A stretch of 29,882 nucleotides of DNA from a bacterium (GCA_965233585.1 CBDDTI010000079.1:1-29882), one strand, 5' to 3'. Counted from the stretch's first letter, positions 2,354 to 29,882 are shown. Made by a program: numbers and translations. The notes: generated by a model from the letters alone, not told the origin.

Positions 2354-4187
2354 TTCTAAAATGAAGAGGACAATGAAGAGGACAATGAAGAGGACAGATG
2401 GGGTTATTCTATGGCCACAAGAGCCAGGGCTCAAGGTCTGAGGTCGCAGTGGCCAGCCACTAATAAGGGAGAGACTCCCTTATTCCCTACGGAATTTCAA
2501 TGAAATGAAGTTCGTGGCTTGTTGCTGAACCAAAAGACCAAGACTTACCCTCCGGCTCACAGCCGGTAGCCCGGGAGGGGCTACTTACCCAACAATTTAG
2601 ATTCACAAGAACTACTATGTAAGCCCACTCCGGGTTGATGGATTAAAATCAAAATAAAAAGAAATTCGGACCCTGACAGTGGATGTCACTAAGTTTTAAC
2701 ACCTACTGTAGCTTACCTTATGGGGGTTTCTTTTCAAAAGAAGATGAAATGATTTCACTAAGATATTGTGGGAAAAGATGAAAAGTCAGAAGACTCTTTG
2801 GACTTTCTAATTGAGGAGGTATCTTCACCTTACCTTAGAGTGAAGAGGTAATTCAGAGGAGAGGTCTGACCCCAGAGTTCCCCTTAAATGTTTAAGGTTA
2901 AGGCTTACCTTGATGATGAAGATCTCTAGAGTTGGGGAAGATCAACTTATTTACGTCACAAGTTTTTGGGATTATTTGACTATCAGTCAAAGAATTTGAA
3001 AATATTCCAAGTGTTGGAAGGTGTTGTCGAGGTAGAGGTCGATAACAGAACGATTTGATACCAGGTTTGTTGCTCCAAGGTGGTGACTGGACTGCTGTCC
3101 AGGTGATGTCAGAAAGGGGGGAGGGGACTTCCTCCCATGTGGTCTCTTTTTCCTAATTTTATGACCCTGAGAATTTCCGGCTCAATTTTTATTACCCTGT
3201 GAATTCCAACTTTTATGACCCTGTGAATTTCTCCACCCCTTGTGGATTTCTCTTATCAAAATTTCCTAGACCATATGACTTCTTATTGCTGATAATTCCC
3301 CATAGGTTCTAACTGCTATTTCCCTAGTCTAATTCCTTGAGTAGCCTCTGCTACGTACACTGAAGTACACTGATAACCCCCCAGCGCGTTTGGTTTGGTC
3401 AAAACAACTCTCTCACGACTGTGGTGAAGCGTCTCTCCCGATGTTCCCGGGCTTGGAGTCCCCCCAAAAGGGATTGTCCAGCAGATGTCACAATGTGGCC
3501 AGTTGCAATTGTGTGTGAAATTTCCTTATGACAATCATTACCCTGTGATTTTACAACAGGATGCAAATCTCATAATTTTACCATTGTGGGACACATTTTG
3601 TGCACATTAACTCCTTCCTGTGGTTTTATGACAGGATGCGAAATTCACACTTTTATTACTCTAACTGGCTGCGATTCCTGGCCACATGTGATGCCACCAT
3701 CTGCTCTTGGACAGAGGCTGCCAAGCTGGGGAATTCGCGGAGTCCCTGACTTCGTCCCACCCCCGGGACCTGCCACAGCCTCGCGCCTACAGGCAAGGCA
3801 TCCAGCTCCTGTCTGGGAGTAGCTGGACCCTGATCTCGCTCCCTCGAGACCCCAACACACTAGAGTTGCGTGCTTACCGTAAGGAACCCGACCCTCATGA
3901 CATCGGTGATCCCAACCCTCTTCCAGGGCCCTCACACTTAATGCCCGCGCTGGGCGATGTTCTCCGGCGCTCTAGCCTCCTGCTCAGAGCCCAACATCCT
4001 TAAGTTACCCTGCCAGACGCTTTGACGGCAAGGAGCCCCAAACCTCTTGGCTTGGTGACCCGACCCCGGCTTTGTTGGCTCAGAGCCCCAGCGTCCTATG
4101 AATTCCTACCAATTTCCTTATTATTGCTAAATCCTGAATGAACTCTTAAACCCTAATGAAATCTTATCTGAATATTGCTGTTGCTGT

Positions 4188-13400: not shown

Positions 13401-13528
13401 TTATCTTTTAGTGTTGGGTCAACACTTCAAGAAAATATTTACATGTTATGACAGCGCTATTTCCACACTTTAAGAAAATTTAAAAATCTAAAATCTTCCA
13501 AAAGTTTATGAGCGTGCATGTGTTGTAG

Positions 13529-13578
13529 AGAAATGTACCTACATCAGGCTCTTTCGAGCTTGATGTAGGCACATTTCT
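13529..13578. repeat. 23-bp-stem imperfect inverted repeat near the presumed element end
   Basis: AGAAATGTACCTACATCAGGCTC-TTTC-GAGCTTGATGTAGGCACATTTCT. Confidence 0.85.
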
Positions 13579-13702
13579 TCTCAAAACACTCTCAAAACAC
13601 CTTAAAACAGTCTAAAACGGGCTTTTAACCATCCGTTTACGCATGAAAACCATCTTGATGCGCTCTCAAACCACCTTGATGGCATCTACATTGAGTCTGT
13701 TG

Positions 13703-14050
13703 CAGGCTCAATCGAGCCTGTTTTCGTCTGTAATCGGCCTGCAACCGGCTTGTTTTCGTCTGCAATCGGCTTGCAACAGGCTCGATCGAGCCTGTAATCG
13801 GCCTGCAACCGGCTTGTTTTCGTCTGCAATCGGCTTGCAACAGGCTCAATCGAGCCTGTTGCAAGCCGATTACAGGCTCAATCGAGCCTGTTGCAAGCCG
13901 ATTACAGGCTCAATCGAGCCTGTTGCAAGCCGATTACAGGCTCAATCGAGCCTGTTGCAAGCCGATTACAGGCTCAATCGAGCCTGTTGCAAGCCGATTA
14001 CAGGCTCAATCGAGCCTGTTGCAAGCCGATTGCAGACGAAAACAAGCCGG
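13703..14050. repeat. Subterminal palindromic repeat array (32-bp unit x6 plus inverted flanks)
   Basis: CAGGCTCAATCGAGCCTGTTGCAAGCCGATTA at 13841, 13873, 13905, 13937, 13969 and 14001 (last copy ends ...GATTG). Extra CAGGCTC-N4-GAGCCTG cores at 13703 and 13777. 13809-13847 is the inverted copy of 14012-14050. Confidence 0.95.
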
Positions 14051-14337
14051 TTACAGGCTTGTTGCAACATCTATTTTTCTCCATTGTCAAATTGTTCTCG
14101 ATTTAAAAGCGCAAAGAAAGGTTCTAAGAATGAAAAATGTTTAAAAATTCCGTCCTTTTTGCTCCAAACCCGCTCAAATGTAATTTTTCAAACTCTAAAT
14201 TTTAAAAAGAAGAATTTCCAAAGTTGTTTCTGATAAGACAAAAATTTGATCGCGCGTATCAAAGTTTTCATCCAATCCTGTTAAAAATTCAACTCACAGT
14301 CGTTTTCAACCGTTTCAATTATCAAGACATCTATTTT

Positions 14338-14923
14338 CTCATAGTTTTTTGATAAATGTGAGGGGTTAAAATTTTTTAATTATAATTTATCTCTCACATT
14401 TATTTTAAAATTGTGAGTTTTTACTACACTCAAAATAACTCCGAAGACCATCTCTATTTCTCATGCTTTTTTGACAAATGTGTGTAGGTCTAAATTTTTT
14501 AATTAAATTTGACCTGTCACATTTGGCATTAAAATTGTGAGCTATTACTCAACTCTAAAATCCGGACACTGCTTATCATCTCATGCTTTTTTTACTCTTG
14601 TACGAGTCTCATAATGTTTTATCATATATGACACTCGCCACAAGAGTAATTAAATTGTGAGCAATTATTTAGCATAAACATCGTTAAATCACAGTCAACC
14701 TTCATCACATTTCATCATCAAGATCAACGTCTTACGCTTTTTTAACTTTTGTGCGCGATTTAAATCTTTAATTTTAATATTTGAATCCACATAAAAGTTA
14801 CAAAATTGTGAGCAACTACTTCACACCGAAAATGTTAACATCTAATCTTCATACTTTTTTGGCACTTGTTTAACTCCAAAATTTTTATTTATTTGGATTT
14901 GCTCAAGTACCATTAAATTGTGA
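14338..14923 (+). ncRNA. Putative cluster of five pri-miRNA-like hairpins
   Basis: Hairpins at 14338-14417, 14460-14541, 14580-14661, 14731-14812 and 14849-14923. They share a basal stem CTCAT(G/A)-TTTT...AAATTGTGAG, have different self-complementary upper arms, and contain G-U pairs favouring the + strand. The structure is seen directly; the RNA function is inferred. Confidence 0.6.
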
Positions 14924-14984
14924 TCACCAACTCATCCAAATATTTGCCGAGCACGCTTTTATTTATTAGTTGGGTCTATGTTAA

Positions 14985-15389
14985 ATGTTGTTTCAGTCGT
15001 GCAGCATGTGTGGGCAAGTCAACAACCAACCAACATCAGGATCGCCGCATAATTCTGACTGGGATTCTGGTCCTGACGAAGCCGGTATTTACAATACTTC
15101 AGATCCAACTCACATCGTGCATTGTATGCGTCGCATTTCTGCTCATCTTCGCAGAATCAACGAGTCTTTGGAATCATTGGACAGTGAATTGGTAAACTAC
15201 AGGACCTGTTTCAAAGACAAACTTCTTGGAAAACCTAATATTTCTGGCGACTCAGCTACCAGGTTGTGGTGGTATCGTGAAATCCAAAACGAACTAAAAG
15301 TGTTTCATTTTTATGCGTCTTTTTGCATGAAATTGTTGTGCAAAGATTTTTGTTTGGAACAACACTCAGTTGATGGAGAAGAAGTATGA
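14985..15389 (+). CDS. Hypothetical protein (134 aa), N-terminal CxxC
   Basis: ATG ORF in AT-rich DNA; its stop overlaps the next start (ATGA). No recognisable family. Confidence 0.6.
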   Translation: MLFQSCSMCGQVNNQPTSGSPHNSDWDSGPDEAGIYNTSDPTHIVHCMRRISAHLRRINESLESLDSELVNYRTCFKDKLLGKPNISGDSATRLWWYREIQNELKVFHFYASFCMKLLCKDFCLEQHSVDGEEV

Positions 15390-18960: not shown

Positions 18961-19680
18961 TTATTGCTCTAGACTTTTAAGACATCTGTATAAAGACATA
19001 ACACTGACGCCTAAAATACGAGCCGTATTTTTGACGCTCGGATATAGTGCTCTTGTTTCTTTTAAAAAGGCATAAGCACATGCTGCTAATAAAGTCCTAG
19101 GAGCAAAAGAACTATTTTCATTTTTATTTAGTTTCTCTTTTATAGTTGTCATCTCTTGATAATTTAACTGTAGAGGCTGTAAAAAATATTCTGCCATATC
19201 TTTTGCTTTTATAGAATTTTCTGTTTTAATTGTGTTGGTCGAATCTTGTCTGTATAATTTTATCCATCGCCATACCGTTTTTGGGCTAATACCAATTTCC
19301 TGACACAAGTGACTTATTGGGCGGGGAATTTTTTCCTCTATTAAACTTTGATACAATGCCATAGCAATTAAGCCTTTTGGATTAATTTTAATTTTTCCAT
19401 TTTTTTGATAATGCCACGCTGCTATTTCTGACCACAAATTAAAAATAGTGTTTGTAACATCATTATTTAAATGTAATTTATTACATAAATTTTTTAAAAT
19501 ATTTTTTTCCTTCTTTAAATGTTCGCTGTTTTGTTCAAATTCTTCATTTAAATTTTTTATTTTTTCCCATTTTGTTTCTAAATTTGGATCACAATATATT
19601 TTATCAATAACTAAACCACACTCGGTGCACACTACGTCTCCTTGTCTGGTGTCTTCTATTATATATTGATGAATGCACAT
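18961..19680 (-). CDS. TFIIB-like transcription initiation factor
   Basis: Zn ribbon CIH...EDTRQGDVVCTECGLVID, close to the TFIIB D..GD.VC.ECGLV motif. Two cyclin-fold-like repeats end in HTH-like segments (LCQEIGISPKTV, ARILGVSVMSL). Confidence 0.9.
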   Translation of the reverse strand: MCIHQYIIEDTRQGDVVCTECGLVIDKIYCDPNLETKWEKIKNLNEEFEQNSEHLKKEKNILKNLCNKLHLNNDVTNTIFNLWSEIAAWHYQKNGKIKINPKGLIAMALYQSLIEEKIPRPISHLCQEIGISPKTVWRWIKLYRQDSTNTIKTENSIKAKDMAEYFLQPLQLNYQEMTTIKEKLNKNENSSFAPRTLLAACAYAFLKETRALYPSVKNTARILGVSVMSLYRCLKSLEQ

Positions 19681-19786
19681 TTTAATCCAATCTAATTTTT
19701 GAACATAATTTCATTGTTTATTGCACGAAGTTCAAAATTTAACTGATTTTACAAATAATCCGACGTAATCTTTTATTATATTGAAT

Positions 19787-20329
19787 TTATTCAGTTTTAT
19801 ATTTTTTCAGCAATTCAGAAATAATTTTTATTCCTTGTGTAGCGTCTTTTTCGCAGGAAGCTCCAATTATTACTATTTTTCCAGACGAAAATATTAAAGC
19901 AGAACACTTTTTTAATGTTAAAAACATTCCAGGAAATTTCTCAGAGTCGTATCTCTTTTGGATAATTTCAAAATCTACATTTAATTTCAAATTGTTGTAA
20001 AATGTTAATAAATTGATTTTTGATGACATATGACACAAACAAGTCATGTTTTCTATTTTAAACTTTTCAGTAATAAATTTACTACTTATAACAAGTTTTA
20101 ATTCGTCTAATGCTTTTGGTATATGCTCTGTGGAAGGGATTTTAGTAATATTTACGTGGAAATTTCGATTTTGCTTTGTTTTAGTAAACACAATAAAAGA
20201 ATATTTTTTTTTAACAACAGTAAAATTATTATAATGTTTTAGTACATTATCGGTATTAAAAGAAATTTTGTCACTGTCGATGAGACGAATTTTGCAACTG
20301 ATTTTAACATTGCTGACCATCACTTCCAT
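19787..20329 (-). CDS. TATA-binding protein-like (180 aa from ATG 20329)
   Basis: Two-repeat layout VSNV.../IENM...; YDSEKFPGM and ALIFSSGKIVIIGA match the TBP YEPE.FPGL and LIF.SGK.V.TGA motifs. Confidence 0.92.
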   Translation of the reverse strand: MEVMVSNVKISCKIRLIDSDKISFNTDNVLKHYNNFTVVKKKYSFIVFTKTKQNRNFHVNITKIPSTEHIPKALDELKLVISSKFITEKFKIENMTCLCHMSSKINLLTFYNNLKLNVDFEIIQKRYDSEKFPGMFLTLKKCSALIFSSGKIVIIGASCEKDATQGIKIISELLKKYKTE

Positions 20330-24070: not shown

Positions 24071-24766
24071 TTAAACGGTAACGTAAGCTTTCATCAGTCC
24101 CTCGTACGGAAAAATGTTGCTTCGAATTCTGACTTTATCGTCTTGTTGTTGATGGAAATCTAGAAGGAGATATCCGTGACTTCGACCGTTAACAGCTTCC
24201 CTGTATGCTTTATTTAAAATTCCGACTCGTCCGGGGAAAATTTGTTTAGCCAAATGCGCAACCGCACTTCTGTCCCGAGGATTGTTAAAAAGAACCATAT
24301 ACTGTGTGTTTATGCTTAATGTCCGCAAATCACCTTTTTTATCAAATAAATTTTGACACAGAAAAACGGTGAAACAATTGTAGTGATGAGTCAAAACCGT
24401 AAAAAAATGTTTTAATATTTGTCCAACATCGTCTAAATAATCATCAAAAACAACTAATTTGGGCATTTTTCTTGGATATGATTCCAAAATATCTTTTAGT
24501 TCTTCAATCGAATTTGGAATACTTTTAAATTTACGAAATGTTGGAAAGCGAGAGTTTGAACGTTTGTCTCGATTCATATCATCTTCCATGTATTCATAAG
24601 CTTTTTGTGGTTCTTTGTAGAACAACAACATTGTTTCTGGTGGAGTTGCAAAATATTCATGCCTACCAACCACTAAATGTTTAAGCCACGTTGTTTTTCC
24701 ACTCGATGTTGGGCCAACAATTAACATGTTGGAAGGAATACTGAACCTTAAATCAAAACCATCCAT
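24071..24766 (-). CDS. FtsK/A32-like genome packaging ATPase
   Basis: Walker A GPTSSGKTT, Walker B LVVFDD, FLCQN, RTLSIN..Y, HGYLLLD. Confidence 0.96.
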   Translation of the reverse strand: MDGFDLRFSIPSNMLIVGPTSSGKTTWLKHLVVGRHEYFATPPETMLLFYKEPQKAYEYMEDDMNRDKRSNSRFPTFRKFKSIPNSIEELKDILESYPRKMPKLVVFDDYLDDVGQILKHFFTVLTHHYNCFTVFLCQNLFDKKGDLRTLSINTQYMVLFNNPRDRSAVAHLAKQIFPGRVGILNKAYREAVNGRSHGYLLLDFHQQQDDKVRIRSNIFPYEGLMKAYVTV

Positions 24767-24829
24767 TTTGCTAGTTTTTGAAAAATATTTAAAAATTTTT
24801 TCTTAAATAAAAGTAACAATATGTTTTAT

Positions 24830-27800
24830 TTATTTACAAATAGGGCATTTAGATGATTTGTTGTTGACAATAAGACAATTTCCTAGTGATAAAGTGTGAT
24901 ATCCGCAATTCAAAATGTGTCTTTTGGAATCCATTGCTGATAACGCAATCTTTCTTTGAAAACATGTCCGAATTTTATGATTCTTTGATCTTAAGTTTTT
25001 GAAAGATTTGTAAATTAGAACAGTCCGTTTCAGACATTTTTTGTAATCGTTATAGGTTAATTGCTTTTTTATGCTAGATTTTTTTAAACCTTTGCAAATT
25101 TTCTTTTCTTCTGTTTTGTTTTTGTCTGAAAAATCAGTAATTTTCATAGAATAACATTTTGGACGTAAGCCTATAAAGTGAGTAATAGCTGCTCTGCCTT
25201 TTAGTTCGTCTTTGAAATAAAAAAGCTGATTGGCTCTACTGTCATCGAAAAGAGGATGTTGTTTGGGGTACTTTGAAAAATCAAATATGTGCTCCAATTT
25301 TTTCATTTCCCTTTCCAAGTTGTTGCATCTTACTTTTAAAAGAAAAGAATCCGTGTCTGAGAAACATAAAGACACATTTTCTTCGCCAAAATGTTGTTGA
25401 ATCGTGTCATAATACGATCTGTACATAAACAACTTGGACAATTCCAAAATAGAAAATCCAACAGCTAAAGGCTTCCTGAGCTCTATTATTGCCGGCTTCT
25501 TGTTGACAGCCACCAAGTTTTCATTGATGATTTGAAAACTGTTGATGTGTTGACCAAGACTGGCTTTCCTTAAGCTCTGTTCATCACCACAAAGGACCAC
25601 TTCAGAGTAATTTCGAACATTTTCTGAAATGCAGAATAAGATTTATTTAATAAAGAAAATTGATTATGTGCGCAATCACCTCAGCTAACTAGCCGTCCCA
25701 TATCACATTTCATTTTCCTCTGTAATTAGCAATGTACTATAATTTACTTCAATTTGAAATCATTCCTTTTTTAAAGCCCGACATAAACGGACATCAAAAA
25801 TTCCAACAAAATAAACACTAAGTCAAAATGGATAAAAAAGATCAGGAAAAGAGCAAAGCTTTTTGGTTAAAAGTAATAAAATCAGCCCAGGAGGAGGCAA
25901 CTTCAAGTCCGACTTCTGGCAGTAGCTCTACCGGGGCTGCGGCTGGGGGAGCATGGTCATCTACTAAAACTGAGGGAGCATGGTCATCTTCTGGGGCTGC
26001 GGGTGGAGGATCATGGGCATCTTCCGAGCGTCCCGTGGCACCTGCTTGGCCATCACGGACTCCGTACAAGTCCGTCCCACAAAAATCAGGGTCGGAGTCG
26101 TGGAAGAGCGCATCTACTGCCGGGGTCGGGGGCGGAGGAGCATGGTCATCCACTAAAACCGGAGGAGCATGGTCATCTTCTGCGGCCTTGGGTGGGGAAT
26201 CATGGTCATCTTCCGAACGTCCCGTGGCACCTGCTTGGCCATCACGGACCCCGTACAAGTCCGTCCCACAAAAATCAGAGCGGGAGTCGTGGAAGAGGCA
26301 TCTACTGTCGGAGCCGGGAGTGGGGGAGCATGGTCATCCACTAAAACTGGAGGAGCATGGTCATCTTCTGGGGCTGTGGGCGGAGGAGCATGGTCATCTG
26401 CTAAAAATGAGGGGGCATGGTCATCCACTAAAACTGCGGGAGCATGGTCATCTTCTGCGGCCTTGGGTGGGGGATCATGGGCATCTTCCGAACGTCCCGT
26501 GGCACCTGCTTGGCCATCACGGACCCCGTACAAGTCCGTCCCACAAAAATCAGGGTCGGAGTCGTGGAAGAGCGCATCTACTACCGGGGCTGGGGGCGGG
26601 GGAGCATGGTCATCTACTAAAACTGGAGGAGCATGGACATCTTCTGGGGCTGTGGGCGGAGGAGCATGGTCATCTGCTAAAACTGAGGGGGCATGGTCAT
26701 CTACTAAAACTGGAGGAGCATGGTCATCTTCTGCGGCTTTGGGTGGAGAATCATGGGCATCTTCCGAGCGACCCGTAGCACCTGCTTGGCCATCACGAAC
26801 CCCGTACAAATCCGTCCCACAAAGGTCGGAGTCAGAGTCACGAAAGCAGACCTCTCATCGCGTGTCATTTGATTTGTCTTCACAATCAACACAAAAATCT
26901 AAACCACAACCCTATACTCACGTGGAACCTTCACCAACACCAGAAGTGCGTCAAGTAACGGCATTTCCATCAGTGTGGTCTCCGTCTACAGCTCGAAAAG
27001 TTACAAAAAAAAATTAAAATTTAAATTTGATCATTTTTCTTTTTCTTTTTGATTACAAAATAAACACATCATTTTATAAAAATTGATTTTTCAAAAGTTT
27101 GCGTACTTGATTAATTCATTTTGCGAATTTTTAATTTAATATTGATTTAATATTATGAATATTTATGAGATAATTTGCTAATTAATATGTGAAGGTTTGG
27201 AGATTCATTTTCTAAAATTGACAAAACCATGCGGGAAAATTCAAAACAAATTTAGAGAAGGAAGAGGAGAAGGAGAAGGAAAAGGAAAATGGACAAGGTA
27301 AAGTTAGGAAGGATGAGGAGGGGGAAATACGAGGTGTTGAGGGCGAAATGGACGGAAGAGGAGGAGGAGGAGAAGTTCAAGCTGCTGCCGGACCCGCCAT
27401 TGAGCGAGACACCGCCGCGTCCACCACTGATGTGGGGCGGTGGCCGTTTTAGACGGCTTGCCAGAGGCTTGATCATGATGATCAGGACGGCCGCCGCCTC
27501 CGTCGCCGACTTTGTTGCCGGTCGTCCGGACGTCATCCCCACCGACGTCATCCCCGCCAACGTCATCCCCACCGACGTCAGCCCCGCCGACGTCATCCCC
27601 GCCGACGTCAGCCCCGCCAACGAAGCCGATGTTTCTGAAGATGACGATTTTGATGAGGCTAAGTGTGTGGTTGGTGCCGGCAGGACGTACTGCCGCAACT
27701 GTCGCCGGTACCACCACGCACTTGTGCCTCAAAATTAAAGAAAAATACAAAAAATGACCCCAAATTCGTTTGAGTATTTAACAAATTCATTTTTTACAGA

Positions 27801-29882
27801 AAAATGGACTGCGTCAAATTACGCTTTTGCGTCTTTTACAATCTCAACATCATTAAATTATCTTATCTCAAAACTTACCAATAAATTTTCCAAAAGTAGA
27901 GTTGGCAAAAAGTTTAAAAAGCCGGAGTTCAAAGTCATTGCGAGCATTTGATCGCAGCTTTGTGACCTTTTCGATGAACTCCTTCAAAAAAGCTTTTTGT
28001 CGAAACTTCATGACTCTTCTTATCTTCAGCAACTTCATGCCCTTTTTCAAGTAGTACTGCAGGTTTTCCAGATGCACCACGTACTTTTTTCGGTCATAAA
28101 AAGTGCTCAACAATTTCTTGCTCCGGTATCTTTTGTTCCTATAATCTCGAGGACAGTGATGTTTCAGTAAACGGCGATTGTAAGGAGATAGATGTTTAAA
28201 AGAAACCGTGTCTGTATACGGAGCCAGCGGAAATTGATCGTGTGCCTGAAAATGATATCATGTAACTTGTCAAAACAATAAATAACGTATCACAACAAAG
28301 ATCGGATTTACCTGGTGAAGATGAGAAGGATAATGCAAATCAACTTCGAACGCATATCCAGTATCGTCTTGCGAAGGAATGTTGATAATATCTTCGGCAG
28401 TCCATTTTTTAAATTCTGTTTTTGAAACCCATTGGAAATCAGAAACTGGTAATTTTAAAGTTTCCATACTCCCGTATAAGTTGTTGGCTGAAAAATTGTA
28501 CGGATCATAACAAAAATGATTTCATCAGATAATACAGTATAAAATTACCATCAATGTATAACAAGTGATCGCCGCTTTTTCTAGGATTGCTATTCCCTTT
28601 GGCATAACGCTGAGCGATAAAACTTTGCCCACCTCTGATACCCTTTGTAAAAAAACGCTCCATTTCAGGATCGGAATAGACATCTAATGATCCGAGGGGT
28701 TTGGAGGTTTCAGATTCGGATGTGAGCTTATTATCTGATTTAGCTTGTTCTGAATTTTGAAAGAACATAAGCATGACATCAAAACTCAAGCCAGGAATTC
28801 CTAATTTAGGTAGAATAAATTTAGTATTACGATACATCCAACAGTAAAGATTAAAGTTTACCTAGATAATAAACAGGATCCAATTGAAAATGTTCCATAA
28901 CCATTTTCCTGTACTGAAGAAATGCTTCACACAGCAAAACAACGTCTAAAGAACAATAGAGCATCATGTAATCCACCACATTCTTGCATTTGAACGATTT
29001 AAAGACTTCTTGAGCATGGGAATAATCCGCTTCCGTAATGTGTTCTTCGTTTAATTCAGAATAAAAAGAGTCTTTGGACGGAAGGTTTCGACTTTTCTTC
29101 ATCTCTTGTAAAGATTGGAAATGTTCGTAACAAAAAACGCCTTTTCTTTTTAAAAGTTTTAAAGCTTTTGATTTTTGACGAACAGGAATTTTTTTATATC
29201 TTTCCATTTGTTGTAAAATGGGAAAGGTAAAATTTGAGGTCTGATTCAAATCTTGAACAAGTGCATCTAGACTGCCAGAAATGTGCTCTAACGAATCTTG
29301 AATTTTAAATTTGCCCAATGTAAGAGTGCGAAACTTTTCACTGTTTTTTGCTAAGACTTTTACATTTTGCTTAAATTTGGAAACATTTAACTCTTCCACG
29401 ATTAAATGCAAATCGTATCTGAAACGCGTACATAATTTGTGTTAGTTTAATAAATAAACCCAATTAAGACTTCTTACCCTTGAGCGTTGTGGAAAAAAAT
29501 TGGTGTGTGAAAGGGGCCGGATCTCGTCAAGTTACACAGTGAATGAGCTGCGCCCATTATTTTCCCTGTCACGTGATCATGATCTAGAACTTTTCTGTAA
29601 TTTCTAGAGTACTTTTTGAATTGACCACCACAAATATGACAAACTTTTGCTTTTTGATACATTTGCCATTCTTGCGGACTAGATTGATTTTTAACAATAT
29701 GTCTGAATTTTTGTTTTCTTTCGTCAACAACTTTTTCATAGAAATGCATTCGATCCAAAAAATGTTTGGCTGCATCCTCTCCTACATATTCTTCTTGAAA
29801 AAATACCTCATCATTCGAATCCACAAAAAGCAAGCTATACCCCACTGGTCTATGCACGTTTATATCGTCACTGGTAGGAAAA
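24830..29882 (-). CDS. polB: Protein-primed family B DNA polymerase, spliced and 5'-partial. Exons: >29881-29478, 29418-28862, 28800-28549, 28487-28312, 28245-27879, 25623-24830
   Basis: Splicing at GT-AG sites gives one open frame of 849 aa in the window. It restores motifs across every junction: FHNAQG/YDLH (Exo II), YYLG/IPGLS, YID/ANNLYG (motif A), LHQ/AHDQFPLAP, KLFANSTFGKFI/ENVR (motif B). SDTDS (motif C) is in the last exon. Confidence 0.95.
25828..27017 (+). CDS. Gly/Ser/Trp-rich repeat protein (~396 aa after repairing a 1-bp deletion at ~26297), nested in the polB intron
   Basis: ATG in CAAAATG context. Four copies of a unit made of GGAWSS repeats plus SERPVAPAWPSRTPYKSVPQ. Unit 2 has AAGAGGCATC where units 1 and 3 have AAGAGCGCATC. 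Confidence 0.75.
27289..27738 (+). CDS. Hypothetical protein with DVIP(T/A)/DVSPA pentapeptide repeats and a Cys/His C-terminus, nested in the polB intron; start uncertain
   Basis: GC-rich island in AT-rich flanks; 15-bp tandem repeat at ~27529-27621; ends C..GRTYCRNCRRYHH. Confidence 0.5.
   Translation: MDKVKLGRMRRGKYEVLRAKWTEEEEEEKFKLLPDPPLSETPPRPPLMWGGGRFRRLARGLIMMIRTAAASVADFVAGRPDVIPTDVIPANVIPTDVSPADVIPADVSPANEADVSEDDDFDEAKCVVGAGRTYCRNCRRYHHALVPQN
28246..28311 (-). other. polB intron (66 bp)
   Basis: CAG|GTAAAT...TTTTCAG|GCA, phase 0. Confidence 0.9.
28488..28548 (-). other. polB intron (61 bp)
   Basis: G|GTAATT...TTTTTCAG|CC, phase 1; splits motif A. Confidence 0.92.
28801..28861 (-). 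other. polB intron (61 bp)
   Basis: G|GTAAAC...AATTAG|GA, phase 1. Confidence 0.85.
29419..29477 (-). other. polB intron (59 bp)
   Basis: GG|GTAAGA...TTTCAG|A, phase 2; splits the Exo II motif. Confidence 0.92.

Follow-up and report, generated by a model that had tools for sequence, protein, structure and literature searches.

The window, a stretch of 29,882 nt, is contig C79 of a 12.0-Mb, 747-contig assembly that is filed as a prokaryote genome. Up to position ~13,500 its G+C content is 46–60% and it carries a retrotransposon open reading frame (ORF) for reverse transcriptase/RNase H; from 13,520 on, it is occupied by an element with 28–37% G+C, except for one G+C-rich block at ~25,800–27,700. 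This element recurs across many contigs at 79–99% identity and, judged from one copy, is roughly 24 kb long. The earlier note had placed it among the Polintons, an assignment that is borne out by an rve integrase (2.5e-9, above cut-off) with a chromodomain-like tail, a lead to a double-jelly-roll (DJR) capsid, terminal inverted repeats, and weak matches to an adenain-like protease (E 0.0064) and an A32-like ATPase (E 8.5e-4), both below Pfam cut-offs. The capsid lead consists of a feature match to DJR-like clusters from animals, together with animal homologues. An ORF with a DTDS motif at 24830–25426 is a candidate polymerase fragment; the DTDS-motif PolB ORF fragments had no match in PDB or PHROGs, and the protein-primed polymerase profile PF03175 had no match on contig C79. 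The same profile matches in related family C elements, beside a stretch that aligns to window positions 24243–25537. Polintons, also known as Mavericks, are widespread in animal genomes, where they are both transposons and viruses, and they are evolutionary relatives of adenoviruses.

The named relatives of the capsid protein, ~30% identical to it, belong to an annelid and a beetle, and closer relatives (73–76% identity) occur in public metagenome assemblies. A search of 63 further genomes from the bacterial order of the bin found the capsid gene in none. Given the animal relatives of the capsid and its absence from those 63 genomes, we read contig C79 as animal DNA, carrying a Polinton/Maverick, that was binned with a bacterium. 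The carrier host is probably a marine animal, the placement as 'animal' coming solely from the capsid relatives. Both the annelid and the beetle groups possess Drosha and Pasha.

In this multi-copy element the array of interest follows a terminal inverted repeat of ~690 bp and precedes the first gene, 800–1400 bp from the element end and in the same sense as the next two ORFs. The features of this region are as follows.

~13504–13599, terminal palindrome, folding at −45.6 kcal/mol
13520–14206, left terminal inverted repeat of ~690 bp; homology among copies starts at 13520–13523
13716–14058, palindromic 32-bp tandem repeats (TRF)
14207–14337, plus strand, AT-rich leader holding an initiator-like TCACAGTC at 14294–14301
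14338–14418, plus strand, hairpin unit A1; −30.8 kcal/mol, z −8.8; minus strand −13.4 kcal/mol; covariance-model match 77.7 bits
14460–14542, plus strand, hairpin unit A2; −25.6 kcal/mol, z −5.1; covariance-model match 88.3 bits
14580–14662, plus strand, hairpin unit A3; −31.0 kcal/mol, z −8.0; minus strand equally good at −32.0 kcal/mol
14731–14813, plus strand, hairpin unit A4; −24.6 kcal/mol, z −6.2; minus strand −15.0 kcal/mol, z −2.9
14849–14924, plus strand, hairpin unit A5; −19.5 kcal/mol, z −5.1
14419–14459, 14543–14579, 14663–14730 and 14814–14848, plus strand, four C/A-rich linkers with CNNC just 3′ of the hairpin bases
14959–14969 and 14994–14999, plus strand, a TATA-like box and a TCAGTC initiator, both candidates read from the sequence
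14985–15389, plus strand, frame of the first ORF with its ATG at 15006, the downstream boundary of the array

In contig C288, which has a complete copy, the ~690-bp terminal repeat recurs in inverted orientation at the opposite end of the element. That end, in this one A-family copy examined, has no scaffold hairpins, which makes the array unique to one end of the element; an interpretation of the array as part of the terminal repeat or of an origin was rejected for this reason. The initiator-like TCACAGTC of the leader is 40 nt before the first hairpin and recurs at 14688, and the array of a sister family, described below, is also preceded by an initiator-like motif, in a CACAGTC form. The leader may hold a promoter or the start of a hairpin transcript. 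A promoter role is likewise conceivable for the TATA-like box and TCAGTC motif before the first ORF, and the region 14959–15389 is conserved in the sister family.

From 14338 to 14924 the plus strand forms a row of five hairpins of 76–83 nt each, and all five that the earlier note had described were recovered at their places. When each unit was folded on the plus strand, none of 200 dinucleotide shuffles gave as good a fold for any of A1–A5. In a fold of the whole 661-nt stretch all five hairpins were kept (z = −9.2; matched by 0 of 20 shuffles) and the linkers were mostly unpaired. A covariance model built from the five units found only these five sense sites in the 29.9-kb window, at 78–88 bits, together with weaker antisense images of the same hairpins. 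A2 is a tandem duplicate of A1 (TRF: 123-nt period, 80% matches). No ORF of at least 80 amino acids occurs within 14338–14919, and coding sequence was rejected as a reading of the array on that ground.

The units share a basal stem of ~11 bp in which CTCATGCTTTTTT pairs with AAAATTGTGAG, as had been noted; in the window units the lower stem is formed by CUCAUGCUUUUUU with AAAAUUGUGAG, and the upper arms differ. The earlier description of the arms as variable is right in that the upper arms differ and yet stay complementary, but it is overstated, since the units also have in common apical AAA/UUU pairs, a loop that begins U-rich and a UGU:ACA at the centre, and only ~15–18 bp of mid-stem truly differ. 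G-U pairs make up 16 of the 150 consensus pairs on the plus strand, and the four linkers contain 6.5% G versus 26.5% C; on both points, G-U pairing and G-poor linkers, the first impression was accurate.

Twenty-one left-end copies of the element are present in the assembly. Nine of them are near-identical (93–100% in the flank just downstream of the array), carry five units each and belong to family A, whose more distant copies include C224, at 79%, which has five units with many changes, and C592, at 84%, which has four units. Another copy, C212, retains unit 1 alone. Sister family B comprises nine copies, the genes of which are ~80% identical to those of family A. In the same place, family B has nine hairpins that follow this design but differ in their arms, and beside them one or two decayed units; some of the family B units are decayed or partly deleted. 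Units are thus gained or lost between lineages, with 5, 4, 1 and 9 or more units per array. All nine B units fold well on the plus strand (z −4.3 to −8.3; 0 of 200 shuffles as good for each), so that the 14 distinct units, five from the window and nine from the sister family, span z −4.3 to −8.8 with 0 of 200 shuffles as good in any case. The A and B arrays cannot be aligned by blastn and have diverged faster than the surrounding genes, which fits diversifying guides and, equally well, a constraint on structure only. The design is nonetheless recognizable across the families, as the covariance model of the five window units finds 7–8 of the 9 units in each B locus. Throughout the 12-Mb assembly, with 150 of 6,966 candidates scored, all 66 matches at E ≤ 0.001 fall in A or B arrays, which argues against a dispersed miniature element; with the additional observation that the unit interiors differ, miniature inverted-repeat elements were rejected. 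One copy (C47) of a third Polinton family in the bin, with a capsid 52% identical, has no array.

To ask how far pairing has been preserved, 19 units (A1–A5, the five of C224 and B1–B9) were aligned by MAFFT from sequence alone. The alignment contains 13 consensus pairs, 10 of which show compensatory double changes. Paired cells reach 88.5% versus a shuffled mean of 71.0%, cells with both sides changed number 48 versus a shuffled mean of 17.0, and the covariation score is 0.561 versus 0.256 for shuffles; in each case 0 of 500 shuffles reached the observed value, and partners slid along the alignment scored at most 0.192. The compensatory changes that had been sought in sister elements are thus present as strong covariation over the 19 units. 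Within family A, 150 pairs are 98.1% paired and 5 show double changes (0 of 500 shuffles); compensatory changes appear in the upper stem of A5 in copies C224 and C288b. Within family B, 263 pairs are 99.4% paired, and the covariation in this family alone is not significant, its 2 double changes being reached by 110 of 500 shuffles; the copies within each family are young.

Rates of change point the same way. Variable columns account for 58 of 300 stem positions in family A and 36 of 526 in family B, versus 87 of 245 and 68 of 503 linker positions, respectively, so that stems are about half as variable as linkers (p = 3e-5 for A and 4e-4 for B). The lower stems are the least variable part (16 of 130 columns in A, 11 of 229 in B). 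In the upper stems of both families together, 45 of 324 columns vary in the 3p arms versus 66 of 328 in the 5p arms (p = 0.037). These results support the conclusion that the hairpins are under selection for pairing. Chance palindromes are contradicted by the strong covariation and by the greater conservation of stems and basal stems relative to linkers.

The sequence changes also distinguish the strands. Of the variants that alter a single partner of a pair, 32 preserve the pairing on the plus strand only (C to U, A to G) and 11 on the minus strand only, with 18 preserving it on both strands and 19 on neither. Because mutation of duplex DNA is strand-symmetric, a split of about 1:1 would be expected in the absence of selection, and the 32 versus 11 split departs from it (binomial p = 0.002). 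The plus strand gives the better fold in 11 of the 14 distinct units, the minus strand in 2, with 1 tie, a tally in which the units are related by duplication and therefore not independent, as also holds for the CNNC counts below; A3 in the window and B1 in the sister family are the units in which the minus-strand fold is as good or better. G-U pairs number 43 of 421 on the plus strand versus 16 of 377 on the minus strand (p = 0.002), and the summed folding energy is −379.6 versus −293.1 kcal/mol. The bias in wobble changes, the G-U content and the fold stability agree with the RNA fold on the plus strand to which the G-U pairs had first pointed, and, taken with the G-poor linkers, they point to an RNA of plus sense or, less likely, to a single DNA strand.

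The dimensions of the hairpins were compared with those of primary microRNA (pri-miRNA) transcripts, and the geometry of a Microprocessor substrate that had been proposed for them fits: a basal stem of ~11 bp, mostly unpaired flanks and a CNNC motif. The stem spans about three helical turns and is flanked by single-stranded sequence. The arms are 32–38 nt long in 13 of the 14 units, those of B7 being 45 and 48 nt, and each unit has 25–36 pairs. CNNC starts 3–9 nt past the base in 12 of the 14 units, which are related by descent; shuffled 3′ flanks gave a mean of 4.4 units, and 0 of 2,000 shuffles reached 12. The same test on the 5′ flanks, read outward, gave 7 of 14. With an assumed cut 11 nt up the stem, CNNC would stand 14–20 nt from the cut. 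Passages of PMC6004053 place CNNC ~17 nt 3′ of the Drosha cut, with 15–21 nt still working. In the same passages, the basal UG and the apical UGU are each found in no more than about one in four human pri-miRNAs (PMC6004053). In the array, the basal UG is absent from the junction, where A1–A4 read U|C, and UGU is absent from the apical junction; a conserved UGU is instead found at positions 20–22 from the base, ~8 nt above the presumed cut. A search of the window against Rfam 15 gave 0 matches at gathering score, the best sub-threshold match having 26.8 bits versus a cut-off of 118; 17 of the 22 sub-threshold matches are to miRNA precursor families, which reflects the hairpin shape only.

Runs of T bear on the transcribing enzyme. 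Each window hairpin has a run of 6–7 T inside its 5′ basal strand, a run of 4–6 T is found in 8 of the 9 family B units (B1 has only TTT), and TTTT occurs near the hairpin start on the minus strand. RNA polymerase III would stop at the runs inside the basal strand, before completing a hairpin, which makes RNA polymerase II the likely enzyme, as far as the sequence allows this to be judged. A search by eye found no internal A and B boxes of polymerase III, and polymerase III units were rejected on account of the internal T runs, whichever direction is considered.

We consider it somewhat probable, at roughly 55%, that the array is an element-encoded, pri-miRNA-like cluster. The small-RNA cassette suggested in the earlier note thereby stands in part. 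In its favour are hairpins under selection of a kind that fits a plus-strand RNA, Microprocessor geometry, a Polinton carrier and turnover of units; against it are the missing basal UG, the misplaced UGU and the lack of a match to a known miRNA family. Processing in particular is favoured by dimensions like those of a Microprocessor substrate, by where CNNC stands, by a lower stem that is very strongly conserved and by 3p arms that are conserved somewhat better than the 5p arms. Against this reading, one copy of the third Polinton family and a distant viral relative lack the array.

Transcription, the polymerase, the cut sites, the production and loading of small RNAs and their targets are all predicted here from sequence, and the mechanism would run as follows. 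The array would be transcribed on the plus strand, most likely by RNA polymerase II, either as a non-coding unit of its own or as the leader of the first gene's transcript. Its RNA would fold into a row of pri-miRNA-like hairpins, in which the constant ~11-bp lower stem and the single-stranded, C-rich flanks with CNNC would serve as a processing scaffold. Above this scaffold would stand a middle of ~15–18 bp that differs from unit to unit and a semi-constant apical part. Host Microprocessor and Dicer would cut out duplexes of ~22 nt, in which the 3p strand may be the guide, the 3p sequences following from the assumed cut. The guides would act on transcripts of the host, of rival elements or of the element itself, and new units would come from tandem duplication, after which their arms would diverge through compensatory changes. 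A stronger form of this idea, which we put forward only tentatively and with clearly less confidence, is a natural modular RNA-interference cassette, in which the scaffold is fixed, units are added by tandem duplication (5 in one lineage, 9 or more in its sister and 1–4 in derivatives) and guide arms are rewritten quickly by compensatory change, giving evolvable small RNAs. The targets of the small RNAs, in that form, might be the defences of the host, competing Polinton lineages that share the genome, or a switch in the element's own gene expression.

The arms were searched for targets. All 28 arms were compared by blastn-short with the 12-Mb bin, which lacks most of the host genome, for near-perfect as opposed to seed-type matches, and no near-perfect targets were found in it. 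Matches of at least 17 nt with at most one mismatch number 0–9 per arm, about the estimated chance level outside B6 and B8; the 8–9 matches of the B6 and B8 3p arms are to a segment that is common to these duplicate units.

The outcome of this search is in keeping with a structured plus-strand RNA that carries no guides, the leading alternative, which we judge unlikely. Such an RNA could be a decoy or sponge for double-strand-RNA-binding proteins or small-RNA machinery (Microprocessor, Exportin-5, Dicer or PKR-like sensors), or could stabilize or localize its transcript. As only pairing and scaffold would matter to a decoy, its arms would drift, and the arm sequences do turn over fast between families A and B with pairing kept, a turnover that is equally compatible with a constraint on structure only. 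The structural, strand and scaffold evidence applies to a decoy just as it does to a processed cluster, a decoy that acts by stoichiometry would be well served by one shape in many copies, and Polintons are related to adenoviruses, whose VA RNAs act as decoys. However, the greater conservation of 3p over 5p arms (p = 0.037) is not predicted by a pure structure constraint, and Rfam shows no match to a VA family. A generic double-strand-RNA decoy, moreover, would need neither pri-miRNA geometry nor CNNC, although a decoy for Microprocessor itself would suit both.

A role at the level of DNA is less probable again. The hairpins could act as cruciforms or single-strand hairpins in protein-primed strand-displacement replication or in packaging, or as half-sites for a protein; in the latter case, constant inverted half-sites would bind a protein of the element, such as its TBP-like/TFIIB-like pair or its integrase. 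The location 800–1400 bp from the end, adjoining a highly palindromic terminal repeat, would suit such a role, as would the inverted repeat formed by the constant parts, of the kind that a dimeric protein recognizes, and the minus-strand folds of A3 and B1, which are as good or better. However, the array lies outside the terminal inverted repeat and is missing at the other end, and protein sites need no complementarity of variable arms. Strand asymmetry and G-poor linkers are unexpected for duplex sites and weakly expected for single-strand DNA.

Least probable, and only barely credible, is a by-product without function, either an amplified tandem palindromic repeat or nested miniature inverted-repeat elements, which would account for the A1/A2 tandem duplication, the variation in unit number (5, 4, 1, 9 or more) and the decay or partial deletion of some sister units, but not for pairing that is kept over 19 diverged units through compensatory changes, stems about half as variable as linkers, a design kept in two families with unalignable arrays, or the absence of solo units among the 66 matches in 12 Mb (150 of 6,966 candidates scored).

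Several known systems offer a comparison for the favoured pri-miRNA-like cluster. The hairpin clusters of large DNA viruses such as herpesviruses are assumed to be processed by the Drosha and Dicer of the host. Bovine leukemia virus has about five hairpins, each of which is transcribed singly by polymerase III and ends at a T run. The VA RNAs of adenoviruses are structured, non-coding RNAs of ~160 nt that engage the host double-strand-RNA and miRNA machinery; they are encoded by one or two genes with internal polymerase III promoters and have a complex fold. We know of no RNA-level tools of this kind in Polintons/Mavericks, and the statement in the earlier note that such an array had not been described in Polintons agrees with the literature, in which no description was found, judged by titles and abstracts.

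Other virus groups do have miRNA clusters of their own (PMC3534370; PMC3911700, which mentions that of bovine leukemia virus). Polymerase II miRNA clusters of herpesvirus type likewise line up several hairpins along a single strand within non-coding DNA of the viral genome; by contrast, the present array is carried by a Polinton/Maverick and consists of paralogous units with a common scaffold, and its expression is only predicted. The polymerase III pre-miRNA cluster of bovine leukemia virus is likewise a compact hairpin cluster of a small integrating element, but the T run in the present units lies inside the 5′ basal strand and not after the hairpin. Unlike the VA RNAs, the array consists of simple hairpins of 76–99 nt with no Rfam match. 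Comparable in design are polycistronic animal clusters of paralogous miRNA hairpins and engineered shRNA arrays of miR-30 type, in which a single backbone takes exchangeable arms. Like the present array, they keep the lower stem and the flanks constant around a duplex region that varies, expand by tandem duplication and have CNNC 3′ of the hairpin base. The array differs from both in being natural and on a mobile, virus-like element, in lacking a basal UG and in showing no similarity to a known family.

What stands out is a design of one backbone and many arms in a Polinton, with units gained and lost between sister lineages. If small RNAs are made from it, virus-encoded miRNAs would be extended to the Polinton lineage; as an RNA-interference cassette, it would be the first arsenal of small RNAs to come from the part of the virus world that is related to Polintons and adenoviruses. 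It would then also be a rare natural instance of a single backbone serving many guides and a clean system for the birth, duplication and re-aiming of miRNA genes, and it would hint at how such elements cope with silencing by the host or compete against sister elements within one genome. Were the hairpins no more than decoys, a structured-RNA array under selection in a Polinton would still be new biology.

Relatives of the array were sought more widely. No relatives of the capsid protein were found in viral or metagenome contig collections, and a distant viral contig, found at 26% identity in a search with a seven-sequence capsid alignment, has no hairpin array. The scaffold pattern gave 3 matches in metagenome, 6 in genome and 0 in viral collections, of which 8 score 17.5–22.5 bits and the ninth (L030) has no match to the model; as the scores are low and none forms an array, these matches are taken as chance. 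The viral, metagenome and prokaryote-genome collections yielded no relative that has an array.

Seven of eight public sequencing runs contain part of the stretch, none of them on record as RNA. The four that were examined consist of contigs that cover the array and the genes evenly; they look like genomic DNA, from two organisms, and give no usable information on splicing or transcript ends. The eight best-supported base differences listed in these contigs between 14300 and 14960, several of them on one contig, all fall in linkers or flanks, which lends weak support to the constraint on the stems.

The 12-Mb assembly to which the window belongs is filed as a single bacterium with 2% contamination, and it holds animal-type mobile-element DNA, on the window contig and on many others. 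At least three Polinton families are represented, alongside a retrotransposon and exon-like pieces of actin. The gene for the double-jelly-roll capsid-like protein of the window's Polinton was found in none of the 63 other genomes of the bin's bacterial order. The third Polinton family (contigs C47, C401, C435 and others) has a tandem pair of capsid paralogues that share 52% and 40% identity with that protein, together with clear PF03175 polymerase matches; no hairpin array was seen in the one copy of this family examined.

At 13504–14058 the end of the window's element has a strong palindrome at its terminus (−45.6 kcal/mol) and, after it, tandem repeats of 32 bp that are themselves palindromic; both belong to the terminal inverted repeat of about 690 bp. 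On contig C77, a paralogue of the first ORF with 36–40% identity is found at 3510–3755, some 0.5 kb in from the other terminal repeat. The paralogue is also present on contig C30 (2015–2260), and seven contigs beyond C77 carry it. If the C77 arrangement holds for the family, related small genes begin both ends of the element, with the hairpins at one end only.

The motif TCAAGA is repeated 10–20 nt upstream of many hairpins (14288–14301 and 14688–14724, and in the sister array L021), and units 1 and 4 (at the same two window positions) are preceded by TCACAGTC. TCAAGA and TCACAGTC could each serve as a start site or a processing signal. The array was also observed in two forms with deletions. 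The copy on contig C212 (48633–49045) retains unit 1 alone. In contigs of the public sequencing runs X5 and X6, from a second organism, position 14411 is joined to 14869 through 29 other letters, and this form is deeper in coverage than the full array in those runs.

The Polinton also contains, side by side, two genes resembling general transcription factors, identified by Pfam and PDB matches:

18961–20329, − strand: TBP-like and TFIIB-like genes

The TBP-like gene matches the Pfam TBP family (1.1e-16) and TBPs in the PDB (1.9e-13), and the TFIIB-like gene matches a zinc ribbon (4.3e-8) and human TFIIB (2.1e-6). The Polinton may supply its own promoter-recognition factors, which could affect transcription of the hairpin array. 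A literature search on Polintons and TATA-binding protein returned no paper that, judged by title, concerns a Polinton-encoded TBP/TFIIB-like pair.

Between the polymerase-like ORF pieces, the element (about 32% G+C) is interrupted by a block of about 56% G+C (25828–27700), which carries repeats within it, each about 275 bp long, as well as long ORFs of low complexity that gave no Pfam match. The block is found in nearly all copies of the element. At the window edge, adjoining the polymerase region, lies one further ORF:

29474–29881, − strand: ORF encoding a recombination endonuclease VII domain (6.7e-7)
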